This document shows, piece by piece, positions 2,969-20,000 of a stretch of DNA of 20,000 bases. Location of the stretch: IMG/VR virus record IMGVR_UViG_3300022841_000001; one strand, given 5' to 3'. The DNA is from an uncultured virus (IMG/VR IMGVR_UViG_3300022841_000001) (lineage: Duplodnaviria > Heunggongvirae > Uroviricota > Caudoviricetes > Crassvirales). The notes beneath the pieces are model-generated. The model did not search any database, was not told the DNA's origin, and saw only the letters and a program-made list of their open reading frames with translations. The position numbers and the translations under genes are program-made. Within the stretch, counting starts at the first letter, position 1. Each line of letters opens with the position of its first letter.

Positions 2969-3721
2969 ATGAAAGAAAAACAACAGTACAAAGCAAAAGC
3001 TTATCGTTTAAAAGGGAGTAAAGCTCCTTTATCATACATGTTATCTTCTAGGCACTCACAGAGGTCTCCTCTATTGTACTTTGACGAAACTAAAGGAACA
3101 AATAGACCATTGCGTTATGCGCGTAATCAGAAGTCCGCTTTTGAGGATGAACAGGATGGTAATGCTATTATAGAGCCTATTGTTTTCGAAGACGGTTTAT
3201 TAACCGTTTCAAAGGAAAACCAAATATTACAAAAGTTTTTACACTTGCACCCAAGTAATGGAAACGTATTTGAAGAAATAAATAAAGAGCGTGATGCTTC
3301 TCAGGAACTAGAAAATGTTGAAACGGCACTAGATGCTCAGATTTCAGCAAAAGAAATAACAAAAGATACACTTAAGCTTACTCAGATTTGTCGTGTATTA
3401 ATGGGTAATTCTATTGAGAACATGACTATTCCTGAATTAAAAAGAGATTTACTAGTTTATGCTAGAAACAATCCTGAAGAATTCTTGGATACTATTAATG
3501 ATCCGATGCTTGAACTGATGGATGATGTTCATCAATTTTTCAACTCTACTTTACTAGGTTTTAGAAACAACAATAAAGATGTTTACTATAATTTAAGTAA
3601 TAATAAAAAGAAGATGCTAACTGTTCCGTTTGGAGAAGATCCTTACTTTATTGTTTCATCTTTCATGCAGAGTGATGAAGGTGTAGAGGTTTACAAGCTT
3701 CTTAAAGGTAAGATTAAATAA
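2969..3721 (+). CDS. Conserved phage protein downstream of MCP (250 aa), probably virion/head associated
   Basis: Clean ORF with normal codon usage in the post-MCP slot, bracketed by two terminators. No recognisable catalytic motif. Confidence 0.6.
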   Translation: MKEKQQYKAKAYRLKGSKAPLSYMLSSRHSQRSPLLYFDETKGTNRPLRYARNQKSAFEDEQDGNAIIEPIVFEDGLLTVSKENQILQKFLHLHPSNGNVFEEINKERDASQELENVETALDAQISAKEITKDTLKLTQICRVLMGNSIENMTIPELKRDLLVYARNNPEEFLDTINDPMLELMDDVHQFFNSTLLGFRNNNKDVYYNLSNNKKKMLTVPFGEDPYFIVSSFMQSDEGVEVYKLLKGKIK

Positions 3722-3742
3722 GATTTTACAAAATATACTAAG

Positions 3743-3775
3743 AACACTCTAAATAATTTAGGGTGTTTTTTTTTT
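3743..3775 (+). terminator. Intrinsic terminator
   Basis: 11-bp stem AACACTCTAAA / TTTAGGGTGTT (one G-U pair) with a TAA loop. The 3' arm runs into a T10 tract (3766-3775). Confidence 0.85.
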
Positions 3776-3777
3776 GC

Positions 3778-3785
3778 TATATTTG
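3778..3785 (+). promoter_or_regulatory. Bacteroidota-type -7 promoter element (TATATTTG) for the tail genes
   Basis: Exact TAnnTTTG immediately after the terminator T tract, 15 nt before ATG 3801. This spacing is identical to that of the element at 197. Confidence 0.72.
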
Positions 3786-3800
3786 TAGAAAGAAATTATT

Positions 3801-4775
3801 ATGCCAATAAACGAAGTACGAAACACCGTATTAGCTATAGTTAATAAAAATAACTACGGATATATATCGCCACAAGACTTTAACTTATACTGTCAGCAGG
3901 CTCAGATGTCTATATTTGAAGATTATTTTTATGCTTATAACAATCAAATTGTTAAGGAGAATCAGAGAACATCTGGTACAGGATATGCGGATATTACAAA
4001 AGGACTAGTTGAGGTAATTGACGGATTTTCAGCTACACAAACATTAATAAATAATGGAGCAAATTTATTTTCGCTTCCTAGTAACTATTACTTAATCAAC
4101 AAACTAAACTACTACCCTATAATTGTGGCTTCAGGGAATATAACCCTGAATGCTGCTTTTACAATCAATGACACTGGAGCAACTTTTGTAACAAGCGGAG
4201 TTGTAGCAGGTCAATTAGTATCATCTACTTCTAAAGATGGTGTTACGGCTGGTCAGAGCGCATATATAACAAGCGTAAATAGCGAGACCTCACTATCAAT
4301 AACAGTTGACTTATTTTCAAAAGTATCTACTATTGGTGGTTCGTATACTATCGTTCTAGGTAACGGAATAGTTGAAGTTGAAAGAGTTAATCAGCATAAA
4401 ATATTTTACCTAAAGTCATCACCATTAACTTCTCCATCTACTGGTTATCCAGCTTATGTATTAGGTAATGCCACGACTACAGGTTATGGGAATATAATTA
4501 ATGTTTATCCAGAAACTTTAACAACACCGGGAACTATATTTGCACAGTACGTGAGGTACCCTATTGATCCAAAATGGACATACGTTGAGATTGTTTCAGG
4601 CGAGCCTGTATTCTCAGCCTCTCAAGATGACTACCAAGACTTCGAGTTACCCTTATCAGACGAACCTGCTTTAATAGCAAAAATATGTAAGTACGTAGGT
4701 ATTGAAATTAGAGAGCAAGATGTTTTTCAATTTGGTGCAAATGAGTTACAATCAGAACAACAAACACAACGATAA
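3801..4775 (+). CDS. Tail ring/adaptor protein 1 (P22 gp4 / tail tubular A-like), 324 aa
   Basis: N-terminal helical motif (NKNNYGYISPQDFNLYCQQAQ) and C-terminal YVRYPIDPKW...DFELP...LIAKICKYVGIEIRE resemble head-tail connector ring proteins. First gene of the tail block. Confidence 0.65.
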   Translation: MPINEVRNTVLAIVNKNNYGYISPQDFNLYCQQAQMSIFEDYFYAYNNQIVKENQRTSGTGYADITKGLVEVIDGFSATQTLINNGANLFSLPSNYYLINKLNYYPIIVASGNITLNAAFTINDTGATFVTSGVVAGQLVSSTSKDGVTAGQSAYITSVNSETSLSITVDLFSKVSTIGGSYTIVLGNGIVEVERVNQHKIFYLKSSPLTSPSTGYPAYVLGNATTTGYGNIINVYPETLTTPGTIFAQYVRYPIDPKWTYVEIVSGEPVFSASQDDYQDFELPLSDEPALIAKICKYVGIEIREQDVFQFGANELQSEQQTQR

Positions 4776-14129: not shown

Positions 14130-16187
14130 ATGGCAGAAAATAAAAGTACACCACAGGCATCAAATAAATATTCTATTTACGCTCAGAGAAATGTAGAAAG
14201 CACTCAAGTTGACTGGTCTAAAATAGCCAGTACTTTAACTAAAGGAGCTGAATCAATCAGAGATGAGAGGCAAGGTCGTAAAGACGCTATAGACGTAGCT
14301 ACTCAGGATTCAATGGAGCAGCTTAGTAAGGTTGAAGATGTAAATAATCAAGATGCTGCTAGTTTACTTATTGATGGCTCAAGTATGTCTACTGAGTCTC
14401 TCAGAGTTCAATCAAATATGCTGAAACGTGGTTTAATAAAGCCAAAAGATTTTAAGCTTTTTATGCAACAACAAAAAAATGGGTATTCAAATTTAAACAC
14501 AGCTGTAAAGGGCTGGGATAAATGGGCTACACAAGCAACTGAAAGGTTGGCTATTGCAAAAGCTACAAGTTCACCTATAGCAAGTGAGTTAGAGATTGAA
14601 TTAAACAAACAGCTAGAAGGTTTAGGTAACTTAAAGAATAAAAAACTATGGACTAATCCTGTAAATGGCCAAATGCAGTTGGTTACTATGGGTAAGAATA
14701 AGGATGGCATCTATAATGTTATGCCTGATTACAATACTGAAAAAGAAAAGTTTCAGAATCCAAACACTATGAATAACTTGATGAAGTTTAAGTTAGATAG
14801 GTTTGATATGAAGTCTGCGACAAAAAGAATTACAGACCAAACTGCTACAATTATAACTGCATACGAAGGTAATTATAATGTTTTATCAGGTGGTGGAGCG
14901 ATATATTCAAAAGAAAGTTTTAGACAGTTAGGTAAATTTGGAAAAGATTCAAATGGCAAAAAGCTAACATTTAAAGACTGGAAAGAAAACGAGATTGATG
15001 CTGTTGTTGGTAGCTCTTCAGAGACTAATAATTCTAATGCCGGTCAAGTGCTTGCTGGTAGAGGTTACAAATATGCTAGAACTAAAAAACAATTTAAGTC
15101 TCAGTATCCAAATCTTGATGAAAAATTCTTTATTCCTTACGAAACAATTTCAGGAAGACCAGAAATTACATTAACTTCTGCTCAACAAAAAGAGGCTAGA
15201 AATTTTGTAAACAATCAAATTGAAGCTGGTATCGATGATAAATTAACAATATCTTCTGCTAAGGCTGGTCAACAAAAAAGACAAGACACAACAAACACCA
15301 CTGATATAAATGATGCGAAAAACAGAAGGGTTGCATATGCTGGTGATTTAAATAACCTTATGTCTGGGGACTCAGGAAAAGCTTCTGCTGTTGGTGAGGA
15401 TAGAATAGTAGACATGAACAAAAGATTCAAAGAGTCTAAAAGTCAGTCAACTAAAGAGATACAAAAAATATCAAGAAACGCTGACGAGTTTGTTATCAAA
15501 CAAAAAGAGAAAGGAAAAGATATATCTGTTAAAATACAGAGGTATGAAAAGGATGGTAAAGGTGGGTATGATTCTTCTAGACCAAGACCAGCAAAAGAAA
15601 TAGCGAGAGAGCTTTACAGGCAAATACTTCCTGCTGATGCTACTGATATGTCATTTGATCAATTTTATCAAGATGCCATAGATGATGGGTTTAGTTTTAC
15701 TCCAAGAATGATTGATAATGGTAGTGGTACTATGGTTCCTAACCCTGATTACAAAGGTGATGAAACTACTTCTACTACTGAAAACATAAGACCAATTGAA
15801 TTATATTCTTCAGGGAGTGATTATACTGATTTAAACTTCACGAAAACATTAGCTGATGAGTACGCTTTAATACCTAAAGGTAGAGATAATTTTGAAGCGG
15901 CTACTCCTGTTGTAATGAAATCAGTTGAAAGAGGTTTATCTGCAATACCTGGAGCTAGAGGTATCACAGTGACCAGTAACGATGTAAGATTTGATAGTAC
16001 TAACGAGATTATTGTAAACTTCAATAACCCAGTTACTGGGAAGCCTGATAAAAAAGTTTTTAAATTTAATGAAGACACAACTAAACTTCAAGGAGATGTT
16101 GATGTTTTTATTAATGAGCAAATACAATTGTACAACGATTCAATAGGAAGTGATATAAAAGGAAACGCATCAAGATTTAATAAATAA
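14130..16187 (+). CDS. Putative internal virion/ejection protein (gp15-like position), 685 aa
   Basis: Hydrophilic, Cys-free, helical N-terminal half. Lies between the small and the giant ejection-like genes. Confidence 0.5.
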   Translation: MAENKSTPQASNKYSIYAQRNVESTQVDWSKIASTLTKGAESIRDERQGRKDAIDVATQDSMEQLSKVEDVNNQDAASLLIDGSSMSTESLRVQSNMLKRGLIKPKDFKLFMQQQKNGYSNLNTAVKGWDKWATQATERLAIAKATSSPIASELEIELNKQLEGLGNLKNKKLWTNPVNGQMQLVTMGKNKDGIYNVMPDYNTEKEKFQNPNTMNNLMKFKLDRFDMKSATKRITDQTATIITAYEGNYNVLSGGGAIYSKESFRQLGKFGKDSNGKKLTFKDWKENEIDAVVGSSSETNNSNAGQVLAGRGYKYARTKKQFKSQYPNLDEKFFIPYETISGRPEITLTSAQQKEARNFVNNQIEAGIDDKLTISSAKAGQQKRQDTTNTTDINDAKNRRVAYAGDLNNLMSGDSGKASAVGEDRIVDMNKRFKESKSQSTKEIQKISRNADEFVIKQKEKGKDISVKIQRYEKDGKGGYDSSRPRPAKEIARELYRQILPADATDMSFDQFYQDAIDDGFSFTPRMIDNGSGTMVPNPDYKGDETTSTTENIRPIELYSSGSDYTDLNFTKTLADEYALIPKGRDNFEAATPVVMKSVERGLSAIPGARGITVTSNDVRFDSTNEIIVNFNNPVTGKPDKKVFKFNEDTTKLQGDVDVFINEQIQLYNDSIGSDIKGNASRFNK

Positions 16188-16192
16188 GAACA

Positions 16193-19100
16193 ATGAACGA
16201 AGAAGCTTTTGAATATGCTTACAGTCTTTTTACTCAAGATGGATATACAGGAACAATAGATGATTACAGGTCTTTAGTATCTAGCGATACTGATGCTGTA
16301 TCTCATTCTTATGAGTTATTTAAAAAAGATAAATACTCAGGTTCAAGAGAGGATTTTGAGCAATTGTTAAAACCTGAAAAAAAAAATCAAGTCGACACCG
16401 TGGAGGAAACTTCAGATGGGGTGGAGGAAGTTACGGAATCGTTACAAAAAAATGGATCTTCGGATTCTTTAGGTCAAGAAGATAATGTACCTAAAATAAA
16501 AGTAGAGCAAGATGTAATTACTGATAGTTCTATAAATGGTATTGATGTAGAAAAACAAGACTTTGATAAATTTGTAAGTGATGAAGAGGAGATAAAGAAA
16601 CAAACTGAAGACCCATTTTCTTATTCTATGAATATTGTAGATGAGGCTTTAATAAATGGTAGCGAGGAGAATGCTGTTCCTTTAATGAATTATCACTTTA
16701 ATCAATATGGTTTTAAATTTAAAGAGTCAGATATACTTGGTGATGGTATGGTTGTTAGTTCAGCATCACTTGATGAGAATGGAAAAAGAAAAGAACTTAG
16801 AGTAAACCTTGACCCATTTTCTGGATTTGGAGACAAGGAAGAGAAGGAAGCATTACAGAATTTTTTAAACGAGAACAAAGAAAACAGCAGGAAACTTCAG
16901 TCTGCTGAGAAAGGATACGCTAATTTAGAAAGAAAAATTACTGACCAAAAAGGAATAGACTCCTCATTAAATTCACTTAATACCAAAGCAAATGTTTTTC
17001 GGCAAGAAGTGCAAGGATGGTTAAAAGGTAACGCTGAGTTAAAAAAAAGAACAGAGTTTTTCGATGGATTATCTCAAGACGAAATAAATGACCCTAAAAT
17101 AAGAGATGCTTTTAACTTATACATATCAGATACCAATAAGTCAGAAGCATTAAAGAAAAAAATATTAGCTACTGAATCTGAATTAAGGGATTCGGGTAGA
17201 GCTTTAGACCAAACAATGGGGCGTTATTCTGAGATGAAATCTGCTTCAGGAAACATGTCATCAGCTTCTTTGAATGCTATATGGTCTGGAATTGGAAGGA
17301 TGGGTTCAAGTGCAATGAATTATGTCACTGACTTTATTGTAAACACAGGAGAGTTTGGAGGCGCAAGTCCTATAGGTTACAAGAAATTGTATATGGATAC
17401 AGCGAAGAAAATGTTTGCGACAAAGAAATCTGACGATATACACGACTTAGAAACTCCTAACGAAAACAACGAAACAAGTAAAGGTAAGTGGAATAGTTAT
17501 CTTGAAAATTTAACTGACGAGCAAAAAGACAAAGTAAGCGCTAAGACTAAAGATATTTTAGCAAAGGATAGAAAGTTTGACATCTACGACTTTAATGAAG
17601 ATGGAGGTGCTGATTTAAAAGAGATTCCATCAGGAAGTAGATACTCTGATTACGCTAGAAAACAAAATGTAAAAAATCTTAGTAAGGACTCAATGGTAGA
17701 GCTTGCTAGAACGGCTCCTGTAAAATCATTTGGTGATGACGATGCCAGTGTAGAGTACAGCGACTTAGTGAAAGAAGGTTTTTGGGGAGGAGCGTACCTT
17801 GGATTAATGGAATCGTTACCAGCTATGGCAGGCCCTTCGGGAAAAGCAGGTTTAGTAATGAGGACAGCTTCTATGTTTGGTCAAGTTTCTGACCACGTAA
17901 ACGAAGAGATGTTTAAGAATCCTGAATTTGCAGATATTTCTGAGAACGAAAAACTAACTGTTGCTATTCCTTTAGGTATAACTGTAGGTGTTCTTGAGAC
18001 TATTGGTTTTAGGAATGTAGTGCAACAAAAAGGACTTATCAATAAGGTTTTATTAAAAGCTATAGGAAAGTATACTGGAGCAAAACAAGTGTCTAAGAGA
18101 GGGTTTACGGACGTTGTTCGTCAAGAGGTTGACGGAATGTTAGCTCGTGGTGTCCTTACCTTGGCTGCTGGTGGTGTTGCTGAATTTGAAACAGGTGCTG
18201 CACAAGAGATTGCGGATATTGGTATAAAAGCTATATACAATGGTGCTAAAGAGAAGGATATGTTTCAGACTCCTGAAAGTATCAAGGATGGAATAAACCA
18301 AGTTCTTAAAGCAGGTGCGCAAGAGATGGTTGGTGGCTGGATAATGAGTACTCCTGGAGCAATGATAAACGCTGCTACTTCTAAGGATTTTACTCGTTTA
18401 GATAATGGTGTGTTCGAGGTTTTTGAGGATATGATAGATGATGGTACTTCTACCAAGTTGATAAACATAAAATTAAAAGAGCAAATAAACGCAGGTGTAA
18501 TTACTGCCAGTGAAGCAAAAGAGCAAGAAGCTATTTTTAATAAGTTAAAAGGAGTCTACACTCAGATTCCTAGTGACTATTCTACAGATCAAAAAAAGAA
18601 AGCTTTAGGTCTATTGTTGAATAGACAAGGTTTAGAGCAATCTATAGAAGGTAAAGATGATGCTACGGTTAAGCCAGTAAAAAGAAAAATTGATGAGATA
18701 AACGATTTACTTGAGGAAATAAGTAATAATGCTTACGAATCTAATGAGGCAACTACTGTAGGTCGTGTTGAGGAGGACGAGATTATTGATGAAGAAATTA
18801 AATTAGAAACACCAAACCCAGAAAAAGATGGAATACAAGAGCAAGGCACAGATGGAGTGGATGCAAAAGAACCTACCGGAAGTAGCGAGGAGATCGAACC
18901 AGGAACCACAGATGACAGAACTACCGGAAAGAGTGATACCGAAATCGAAAACGAAAGCAGGGAAAAGGCCGAGAAGGAAATAGAAGTACTAGAGTTTAAG
19001 GAGAAAGATTTACAAGTAAAGTTAAAAGAAATAGCACAGAACGGAACTTCTCCTGAGACTGAAAACGGTCAATTATTTGATAAGGTTTCAGATGAATTGA

Positions 19101-20000
19101 TTGAAGTAATTTCTGAAATTAAAAAAGCAAAAGATAATTTATTAAATCAAAAAGAAAATAAGGAGGTTGCAGAAATTGAAGAGGATATAGATGTTGTTGA
19201 AATTAAACCTACAAAAAAACTTAAGAACGATTTTAAAAACAATAAGCTTAGCTATTTTGACAGAGTCGGAATGCTTTTTGCTATTGCAATAAAAAAGAAG
19301 AACAAGAAAAAGTTAACTAGTTTTGAGGATACACTTTTCTCTAGCTCAGATTCTGCTTTAGTTAATGATATTCTTATTGAGGTAGATGAACGTGCAAGTT
19401 CTCAGTCACAAAGAAGACCATATGTAAAACCTGATTTTGATGTATTAGGAAAGAATCAAGAGGAACAAGACCAGCAAGAGGCAGAGGATTTTGATGCGTT
19501 ATTAAATCCTGATTCAAAAGTAGAGTCAGACATTGATAATCTTCCTACAGCAGAGCTTGAGTTAATGAATGGTGAGACTGTTAAAATCAATCAAGAATCC
19601 AAGAACCTCGTCTTTACAAAGAAAGGAAAGGATGCTTCTACAGGTACAGATCTTACTACTAAGATTTTAAAGCAGGCGCAACAAGCAGCCAAAGCTATTG
19701 CAAAAATATTTCCAAGTATCACAATAATGGTGCATAGGGATAGTGAAATATATGACACTCTAGACCCTGATAAAAATTCTAGAGGACTATATGACCCTGC
19801 AACAAACACTGTTCACATAAATTTAACCAATGGTAAGGCAGACTCAAAAACTGTTGCTCACGAGGTGTTTCATGCAGTGTTGCTTAACAAGTTAAAAATG
19901 AACAATAAGGCAGCAATTGCTGCTACTAAGAAAATGGTTCAAGCCTTGTCTAGGTCAAAAACTTTAGACAAGAATACTAGAATAGCTTTAAAGAATTTTG
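16193..20000 (+). CDS. Giant internal virion/ejection (polyvalent) protein with zincin metallopeptidase motif, >1269 aa, 3'-truncated
   Basis: Manually translated. ATG at 16193 (MNEEAFEYAYSLF...) stays open to the window end and is absent from the ORF track because no stop is reached. Has Gly-rich hydrophobic segments (~17777-18380) and RGLYDP...VHINL...TVAHEVFH (HExxH at 19859-19873). Confidence 0.85.
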   Translation, partial: MNEEAFEYAYSLFTQDGYTGTIDDYRSLVSSDTDAVSHSYELFKKDKYSGSREDFEQLLKPEKKNQVDTVEETSDGVEEVTESLQKNGSSDSLGQEDNVPKIKVEQDVITDSSINGIDVEKQDFDKFVSDEEEIKKQTEDPFSYSMNIVDEALINGSEENAVPLMNYHFNQYGFKFKESDILGDGMVVSSASLDENGKRKELRVNLDPFSGFGDKEEKEALQNFLNENKENSRKLQSAEKGYANLERKITDQKGIDSSLNSLNTKANVFRQEVQGWLKGNAELKKRTEFFDGLSQDEINDPKIRDAFNLYISDTNKSEALKKKILATESELRDSGRALDQTMGRYSEMKSASGNMSSASLNAIWSGIGRMGSSAMNYVTDFIVNTGEFGGASPIGYKKLYMDTAKKMFATKKSDDIHDLETPNENNETSKGKWNSYLENLTDEQKDKVSAKTKDILAKDRKFDIYDFNEDGGADLKEIPSGSRYSDYARKQNVKNLSKDSMVELARTAPVKSFGDDDASVEYSDLVKEGFWGGAYLGLMESLPAMAGPSGKAGLVMRTASMFGQVSDHVNEEMFKNPEFADISENEKLTVAIPLGITVGVLETIGFRNVVQQKGLINKVLLKAIGKYTGAKQVSKRGFTDVVRQEVDGMLARGVLTLAAGGVAEFETGAAQEIADIGIKAIYNGAKEKDMFQTPESIKDGINQVLKAGAQEMVGGWIMSTPGAMINAATSKDFTRLDNGVFEVFEDMIDDGTSTKLINIKLKEQINAGVITASEAKEQEAIFNKLKGVYTQIPSDYSTDQKKKALGLLLNRQGLEQSIEGKDDATVKPVKRKIDEINDLLEEISNNAYESNEATTVGRVEEDEIIDEEIKLETPNPEKDGIQEQGTDGVDAKEPTGSSEEIEPGTTDDRTTGKSDTEIENESREKAEKEIEVLEFKEKDLQVKLKEIAQNGTSPETENGQLFDKVSDELIEVISEIKKAKDNLLNQKENKEVAEIEEDIDVVEIKPTKKLKNDFKNNKLSYFDRVGMLFAIAIKKKNKKKLTSFEDTLFSSSDSALVNDILIEVDERASSQSQRRPYVKPDFDVLGKNQEEQDQQEAEDFDALLNPDSKVESDIDNLPTAELELMNGETVKINQESKNLVFTKKGKDASTGTDLTTKILKQAQQAAKAIAKIFPSITIMVHRDSEIYDTLDPDKNSRGLYDPATNTVHINLTNGKADSKTVAHEVFHAVLLNKLKMNNKAAIAATKKMVQALSRSKTLDKNTRIALKNF
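16377..16485 (+). other. Candidate programmed -1 frameshift/transcriptional slippage site and trans-frame ORF
   Basis: A10 run (16377-16386) and hairpin (16396-16423). The -1 frame opens right after TGA 16375-16377 and reads KKKSSRHRGGNFRWGGGSYGIVTKKWIFGFFRSRR* to TAA 16483-16485. Confidence 0.5.
18828..18983 (+). CDS. Nested +1-frame small basic protein (51 aa) inside the giant gene
   Basis: MEYKSKAQMEWMQKNLPEVARRSNQEPQMTELPERVIPKSKTKAGKRPRRK*. A-rich upstream region with A at -3. Host-frame codon usage is locally atypical. Resembles the small phage 'MPFKSKAQ..WM..N.PE.A' family. Confidence 0.6.
   Translation: MEYKSKAQMEWMQKNLPEVARRSNQEPQMTELPERVIPKSKTKAGKRPRRK

Follow-up and report, generated by a model that had tools for sequence, protein, structure and literature searches.

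Comparative evidence for a three-product reading of a giant virion-module gene in a marine crAss-like phage

The giant-gene locus

The window, that is, the whole 20,000-nucleotide (nt) stretch of DNA analysed here, belongs to the uncultured Crassvirales virus IMGVR_UViG_3300022841_000001 and runs out inside a giant virion-module gene (16193..20000, on the + strand, as are all features named below), whose 5' part of 1269 codons is present as an open reading frame (ORF, 16193-19999) still open at the window's end. Inside this gene, about 61 codons in, a slippery A10 run that is kept in homologs (16377..16386) reads GAA AAA AAA AAT in frame 0 and contains the heptamer A_AAA_AAA; in the -1 frame it leads into the tail KKKSSRHRGGNFRWGGGSYGIVTKKWIFGFFRSRR and its stop codon (16378..16485, stop at 16483-16485), the putative C-terminus of a short isoform. 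Further downstream lies an embedded +1-frame gene (18828..18983, stop included), which has its own ATG and encodes a basic protein of 51 amino acids (aa) (MEYKSKAQMEWMQKNLPEVARR...KRPRRK). The A-rich stretch before that ATG (18804..18827) is, by its base composition, a putative initiation region of the Bacteroidetes type. Comparison with homologs makes it likely that the giant gene is a three-product locus for the giant protein, the short isoform and the small basic protein, as claimed in the original prediction made from the letters of the window; the comparative support for an extra product is very strong at the small ORF, and at the -1 tail it is good.

The same prediction had described two acidic linkers in frame 0, and both are present: codons 62-98 have an isoelectric point (pI) of 4.05, with 11 D/E against 3 K/R, and codons 863-931 have a pI of 4.09, with 24 D/E against 8 K/R. 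The basic character ascribed to the alternative frames was also confirmed, the -1 frame entered through the A10 run being open from 16378 for 35 codons (pI 12.0, 11 K/R and 7 aromatic residues) and the +1 frame encoding, from its own ATG, 51 aa with a pI of 10.5. The switch to G/C-ending codons reported for each linker proved weak. The GC content at third codon positions (GC3) is 0.297 at the first linker and 0.261 gene-wide, and 480 of 1232 equal-sized intervals are as high; the 0.333 of the second linker is matched by 163 of 1200 intervals, and the 0.396 of the small ORF alone by 30 of 1216. When the window is recoded synonymously with the frame-0 protein held, the +1 frame at 18828 is open in 15% of recodings. 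The longest stop-free run of the -1 frame in the window's part of the giant gene has 50 codons (17740-17889). The window sequence alone does not show either feature beyond chance; comparison with relatives does.

Distribution and family of the embedded gene

A peptide-pattern scan found 53 viral contigs with a relative of the small ORF; for 49 of these contigs, the copy falls in the +1 frame of a long ORF, which is open for 602 to more than 2400 codons. Of these embedded copies, 48 start with Met and one is cut by a contig end; their length ranges from 42 to 81 aa, and 28 of the 49 have exactly 51 aa. The first four homologs, down to 49% protein identity, all have exactly 51 codons, with the ATG and the stop in the same place, and the more distant homologs L013 and L014 have the small ORF too. 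The remaining four contigs (L053, L054, L062 and L068) have a small ORF that no giant ORF covers. In L062, this free-standing copy is followed directly by two ORFs, one terminase-like (503 aa) and one portal-like (707 aa), and in L053 it lies between ORFs of 457 and 480 aa. The giant protein has no similarity to the loci around the free-standing copies (tblastn, E<=0.01).

In contig L049, a large ORF that stays open for at least 1969 codons contains an 81-aa family member (1789-2031) in its +1 frame. This large ORF has no tblastn similarity (E<=0.01) to the giant proteins of L002 or of Elemovirus, the cultured relative described below, and the embedding of the small protein may exist in a second giant gene, unrelated or very distant.

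The family extends well beyond these contigs, with 501 independently called small proteins matching a profile of 23 members at E<=1e-3 (best 1.6e-20). All of them are unnamed or "hypothetical" and without a Pfam domain, and cluster look-ups likewise returned "hypothetical protein". Among the 120 matches listed, 115 start with MP[FYLI], 89 have the "xxHP" signature of the free-standing type and 18 have the "KNLP" of the embedded type, and the pattern of the family is MP[FY]KSxAQRxxMHxxxPxIAxRWxKE..LP. Searches with four members of the small protein against Pfam gave no match at E<=10, and nothing meaningful was obtained from Pfam and PDB together; in PHROGs there is a marginal match to phrog_18036 (E 0.071), and 23 of 127 members match phrog_1375 (function not known). 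The AlphaFold2 model built from 127 sequences has short helices at residues 6-15 and 17-23 followed by an extended basic tail (mean predicted local distance difference test score, pLDDT, of 77.8). The basic tail, together with the terminase-like and portal-like neighbours of the relatives, suggests that the small protein may be virion- or DNA-associated.

DUF3008 (PF11450) comprises small basic phage and bacterial proteins with a KSxAQ-like N-terminal motif. A DUF3008-bearing cluster is the nearest named one to the small protein in a language-model atlas (score 0.85, taken as a lead only). The Pfam searches do not bear the assignment out: the family was not matched by four members at E<=10, and PF11450 is absent among the families found for 127 members at E<=1.

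Selection and initiation of the embedded gene

Synonymous-site conservation and codon-position differences were analysed in 26 non-redundant homologs of the giant gene. The identity at giant-frame synonymous sites peaks at the small ORF, with an observed/expected ratio of 1.73, against a mean of 0.98 (standard deviation 0.17) over 1106 intervals; this is the kind of synonymous-site signal for which the original prediction had proposed to test homologs. Outside the two regions reported here no excess synonymous conservation was found, the best value elsewhere being 1.25. Pairwise comparison over the first 26 small-ORF codons gives differences of 0.381 at the first, 0.243 at the second and 0.168 at the third position of the giant-frame codons; the rest of the gene gives 0.548, 0.483 and 0.608. 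The periodicity at the small ORF is that of the +1 frame, and the lowest position-3 interval of all 719 falls there.

In the frame of the small ORF, 16 disjoint close pairs have over its first 27 codons 90 synonymous differences (Sd) and 55 nonsynonymous differences (Nd), which gives a ratio of nonsynonymous to synonymous change (pN/pS) of 0.13, as low as that of the conserved core of the giant gene (0.14). Read in the giant frame, the same pairs and codons have Sd 19, Nd 119 and a pN/pS of 1.67. Where the two genes overlap, it is the small one that is constrained, with the acidic linker as a passive shadow of it. The linker is more likely a by-product of the small gene than a site of de novo overprinting, as the family also has free-standing members and constraint acts in the frame of the small ORF. 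The original prediction of overprinting in the linkers stands as far as an alternative-frame gene is located there; the direction in which it had read the overlap probably does not. Furthermore, the small-protein family is wider than the giant gene, which suggests that the small gene may have come first.

Positions -24 to -1 before the internal ATG are 61% A, against 38% gene-wide, and of the 26 homologs all have an A at -6, 25 have one at -12, 24 at -13 and 18 at -3. In Flavobacterium johnsoniae, which does not use Shine-Dalgarno sequences, A at the same positions is described as a positive determinant of initiation (PMC6847099). Here the A-rich region is supportive only, because the same A's also serve giant-frame codons. 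Together with the invariant Met start, and with free-standing relatives that start at the same MP[FY]KS, this leader points to independent internal initiation of the putative small protein.

The A10 run and the -1 frame

The A10 run is the sole A run of nine or more in the 20-kb window. Among the 41 giant-gene loci with the gene start in view, 37 have a run at nt 170-218 of the gene (A10 in 35 and A9 in 2) and four are without it. It is present in 22 of the 26 non-redundant homologs, in two codon phases, its length staying while the phase differs, and the heptamer A_AAA_AAA is in the proper register in every phase observed. All 17 metagenome contigs of one lineage have exactly A10. L013 and L014 have A12 instead, followed by the same type of tail. 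In L013, a 1-nt difference just upstream of the A12 leaves a 113-aa ORF of the N-terminal module (3468-3809) out of frame with the giant body (3656 onward); the full-length protein of this locus would need a -1 shift at the run, and the difference may reflect either natural variation or a fault of the assembly.

No RNA structure is conserved 3' of the run: across 22 sequences, RNAalifold predicts 0 pairs between the run and +75 nt. In the window itself, the fold after the run is no better than that of shuffled sequences (z = -0.9). A small hairpin with a UUCG loop, GGAUC-UUCG-GAUUC, is predicted at 16453-16466, in the region of the -1 tail.

All 22 homologs with the run keep an open -1 frame behind it, 17-48 codons long. 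Openness was assessed by synonymous recoding with the codon usage of each gene, in which the tail of the window has a P of 0.0087 and the 22 homologs a median P of 0.0027, with P<0.05 in 17 and P<0.01 in 14. The test is calibrated, since 880 random positions of the same genes give 3.5% at P<0.05 and 1.0% at P<0.01. The +1 frame after the run reaches P<0.05 in just 4 of the 22. The avoidance of stops in homologs, looked to in the original prediction as a mark of both extra products, was hence recovered for the -1 frame; the outcome for the +1 ORF is given with the alternative explanations below.

The -1 peptides align on KKK[RS]..., [YF]G[IFLV] and [WYF]x[FIC]G[FI...]. The first Gly-containing motif has Y in 20 of the 22 (F in 2) followed by G in all 22, and the second has [FIC] followed by G in all 22. 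The codons of the conserved Gly residues vary between GGA, GGG, GGC and GGT, with E, D, G, A or V as the giant-frame residue above them, and alternation between TAC and TAT in the -1 Tyr codon switches the giant-frame residue between T and M. In each of the four homologs that lack the run, the -1 frame contains many stops and the motif is absent.

A cultured relative

A tblastn search with the small ORF of L017 gave no match in the phage collection at E<=1e-3; when a free-standing member, P0033, was used as query in the same collection, Elemovirus records were found. Flavobacterium phage vB_FspP_elemoC_14-1A (NC_062743, classified in the genus Elemovirus and not in Crassvirales) encodes a 3695-aa "structural protein", gp20, which is a homolog of the giant protein. 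Its gene has an A10 run at nt 169, the sole A run of eight or more in the gene, and after it a 46-codon -1 tail (...SFGFSY...TYIGW...NWGFGIFCW). It also has a 42-aa +1 ORF that starts with MPFKSKAQ. Neither the -1 tail nor the +1 ORF is in the annotation of NC_062743, and the expectation that standard annotation would miss both products holds for this one annotated cultured relative. The note of the depositors on gp20 (L069, 5340-16424) names DUF3293; Pfam scans of the window's part of the giant protein and of two homologs gave no family.

The giant protein and its neighbourhood

Full-length homologs of the giant gene from viral contigs encode 2957-2976 aa. Upstream of the gene, the ORF at 12027-12845 matches the C-terminal domain of the crAss muzzle protein (PF25729, E 3e-14; 53.6 bits, the cut-off being 27), and other upstream ORFs match PHROG virion structural families; this neighbourhood is a crAss-like virion module. 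The giant protein itself has no Pfam, PHROG or PDB sequence match in searches with the window's part and two full-length homologs, a conserved DxDGD-type motif was looked for and is not present, and the gene has no megablast match in the phage collection. In crAss001, the genes after the muzzle gene encode cargo proteins packed in the virion, namely gp45, gp46 and, associated with RNA polymerase, gp47, gp49 and gp50, which are thought to be ejected, according to PMC10172136. The label of ejection or cargo protein is reasonable for the giant protein, since its gene follows the muzzle gene as the crAss001 cargo genes do, and it is probably an internal cargo or ejection protein, as judged from gene order alone.

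The N-terminal module (aa 1-61; 16193..16375), putatively common to the long protein and the short isoform, has low conservation in the homolog alignment. It resembles two tandem repeats of about 30 aa (...AFEYAYSLFTQDGYTGTIDDYRSLV... and ...AVSHSYELFKKDKYSGSREDFEQLL...), and homologs of the giant protein begin with similar xxLYxxLxxxG motifs. In a 50-kb contig of the metagenome run X12, about 98% identical to the window, 16143-16374 is swapped for 257 other letters, and homology is back at 16375, directly before the A10 run. The swapped stretch covers the end of the upstream gene and the N-terminal module, which seems to be exchanged as a cassette. The window stretch was found in salt-lake metagenome DNA runs, and the contigs of four DNA runs have no insertions or deletions across it.

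Additionally, outside both overlapping units, the giant protein has the HExxH motif HEVFH (19859..19873) in a block, RTV[AG]HE[IV]FHA[VI]LL, that is kept in the window, L002, L003 and Elemovirus gp20. The motif may mark a zincin-like peptidase domain, for which there are no family matches.

Expression model and alternative explanations

The model built on the observed conservation, selected frame, stop avoidance and family membership is as follows. Standard decoding would yield the giant protein. About 61 codons into the gene, the A10 run would divert part of the expression to the -1 frame. The product of this shift, about 96 aa long, would start with the N-terminal module, go on with a run of lysines and end in a basic, aromatic, Gly-rich tail with YG and FG. 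The favoured mechanism for this step is RNA polymerase slippage adding one A; it is preferred over ribosomal frameshifting because the run always has at least nine A's and no conserved RNA structure follows it. At the internal ATG (18828), behind the A-rich initiation region, translation of the 51-aa basic protein would start in the +1 frame. The short isoform, having the same N-terminal module as the giant protein, could be its packaging or ejection partner. A more tentative extension, in which doubt outweighs confidence, is that the small gene is the older one and that the giant ORF consists of two virion genes joined by read-through of the alternative frame of the small gene between them, with slippage at the A10 run setting the ratio between the giant protein, as an ejected cargo, and the isoform in that partner role; the acidic linker would then be the frame-shadow of a basic protein, opposite to the usual course of overprinting.

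Several observations count against three products. Phylogenetic non-independence inflates every pooled statistic given above. The openness of the +1 ORF is mostly expected from the frame-0 protein, with P<0.05 in just 4 of 26 homologs. Over the whole tail, the -1, giant and +1 readings of 11 disjoint close pairs have pN/pS values of 0.71, 0.60 and 0.84; for the motif blocks the values are 0.79, 1.05 and 1.03, from an alignment that was built from the -1 peptides and is biased that way. Short called proteins in which the N-terminal module is fused in frame to the -1 tail exist (P0138 and P0141, on contigs of at most 3.7 kb), and a control search found as many fusions to a +1 tail (P0143, P0144 and P0145, also on contigs of at most 3.7 kb). 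Among the runs containing the window stretch, no RNA run is listed. The remaining points concern the window's own small ORF. Between the window and L016, which are 82% identical, the first 27 codons have Sd 1 and Nd 6, and all 51 codons have a pN/pS of 1.18 in the small-ORF frame, compared with 0.55 when read in the giant frame. The near-invariant P2 and W23 are replaced by E and S in the window's copy.

Two lines of evidence were discarded in this weighing. Stop avoidance was rejected as evidence for the small ORF, since the frame-0 protein alone accounts for its openness. The in-frame fused short proteins were rejected as evidence for the -1 product, since the +1 fusions were equally found; the cases are run-length variants or errors in both directions and favour neither reading.

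The last of the points against suggest an alternative in which the small ORF of the window's lineage is a decaying or functionally diverging copy of a real family, under relaxed or altered constraint. The pair of window and L016 is the sole one of the 16 with more nonsynonymous than synonymous change in the small ORF, and P2 and W23, each at least 90% conserved among the 127 members, are lost in both copies; the small protein of the window is 27-61% identical to the other 126 aligned members. Both copies nevertheless keep the ATG, the place of the stop, the 51 codons, the A-rich upstream stretch and the block YKSKAQ..W..KNLPEVA, and the counts behind the comparison are small (Sd 4.3). Decay or divergence in this lineage is held to be unlikely, without being far-fetched; the window's copy does look less constrained than those of its relatives and may be under relaxed or altered constraint.

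On the mechanism, the -1 product might instead be made by programmed ribosomal frameshifting on A_AAA_AAA. The heptamer lies in the right register in each codon phase, and the frame that is systematically open is the -1 frame only (17 of 22 homologs, against 4 of 22 for +1), as would be expected of a directional ribosomal event. Against this route, the 75 nt after the run have no conserved stimulatory structure, and seven A's would suffice for a ribosome, yet every tail-bearing homolog has at least nine. Nine is the run length at which slippage-related selection becomes evident in many bacterial genomes, as reported in PMC1088944. Ribosomal frameshifting is considered the less probable route, with slippage still to be preferred.

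Another possibility is that the small ORF alone is a true additional gene and that the A run is kept for some other purpose, such as a lysine patch, tuning of giant-protein output by slippage loss or an on/off switch in the DNA, with a -1 peptide that has no function of its own. This would fit the similar pN/pS of the tail in all three frames, the run-length variants in both directions among short public contigs, and the L013 difference that leaves the N-terminal module out of frame with the body. A lysine patch, however, needs no pure A and does not explain the run, because the codon phase varies between homologs and the length does not. A DNA switch is not evident in the assemblies, since the metagenome contigs have exactly A10 throughout. 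Furthermore, synonymous codon choice holds the -1 frame open, and the YG and FG residues do not vary even among deeply diverged homologs, in which their -1-frame codons change synonymously. This explanation is quite unlikely. As no frame stands out in the pN/pS of the tail, the -1 tail of the proposed short isoform has the look of a rapidly evolving peptide for which what counts is its length, its composition and a few of its residues.

Finally, a composition artefact, in which acidic low-complexity linkers automatically leave basic-reading frames open and no extra product is made, is highly improbable. In its favour, the +1 frame of the second linker is open in a median of 15% of recodings, open runs such as the 50-codon one from 17740 are no outliers within the window and the tail lacks frame-specific constraint, but for the small ORF an artefact is already contradicted by selection on its own frame and by its homology to free-standing small proteins, and for the tail it is opposed by stop avoidance far above that of random positions and by the joint occurrence of run and open frame (both present in 22 of 22 homologs, both absent in 4 of 4).

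Relation to known systems

In lambda Rz/Rz1 and in phiX174, a gene lies wholly inside another gene in a different frame. Like Rz1 within Rz and the phiX174 case, the small gene is a start-to-stop unit of its own inside a larger gene, read in the +1 frame and missed by standard callers. Unlike in these phages, the enclosing gene is a virion-module gene of about 3000 aa, the embedded protein is without signal or lipobox character and its family is also free-standing, and it is the embedded frame that is constrained, with the enclosing frame looking passive.

Runs of 9A or 9T in insertion sequence (IS) elements are transcriptional slippage sites used in expression (PMC1088944), and the Shigella gene spa13 has a slippage site after 58 codons (PMC5009743). 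As at these sites, a homopolymer of at least nine A's stands early in a coding region and would lead to a second product that differs from the first at the C-terminus but not at the N-terminus. The differences are that slippage is here proposed from sequence, that the phage is one of Bacteroidetes and that the alternative product would be shorter than the standard one. PMC5009743 also covers phage genes with two frameshift products, namely the lambda G/GT tail chaperone and the T3 and T7 capsid proteins 10A/10B. These resemble the present case in that one virion-module gene would give two proteins with a common N-terminus, presumably in a set ratio. They differ in that a ribosomal shift near the 3' end extends the product, whereas here the site is near the 5' end and the giant protein would be truncated to about 96 aa.

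Similarly to the crAss001 cargo genes, the giant gene is large and downstream of the muzzle gene, the assignment being by gene order alone; unlike the crAss001 cargo, its protein has no similarity in Pfam, PHROG or PDB and no conserved DxDGD-type motif. As the original prediction had supposed, no description of this locus was found in the accessible literature on crAss-like frameshifting, phage slippage, Elemovirus and embedded phage genes; PMC7886860 treats disrupted RNA polymerase genes, which are unrelated to the locus.

Implications

Embedded genes and slippage sites are both known devices. What differs here is the combination of the two in one giant virion gene, with a truncated putative product and a selected embedded frame, and the retention of both across a broad set of related environmental phages and a cultured Flavobacterium phage. 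Neither is recorded in any of the annotations inspected. The pair of Elemovirus and Flavobacterium sp. BAL314 makes the three-product reading directly testable. Should the products be made, a small-protein family of phages with at least some hundreds of members would gain its first functional context, in a virion or packaging module, and the overlap would be a clean case of an enclosing frame as an evolutionary passenger. In that case, the gene catalogues of crAss-like and related phages would also be missing two products per genome.

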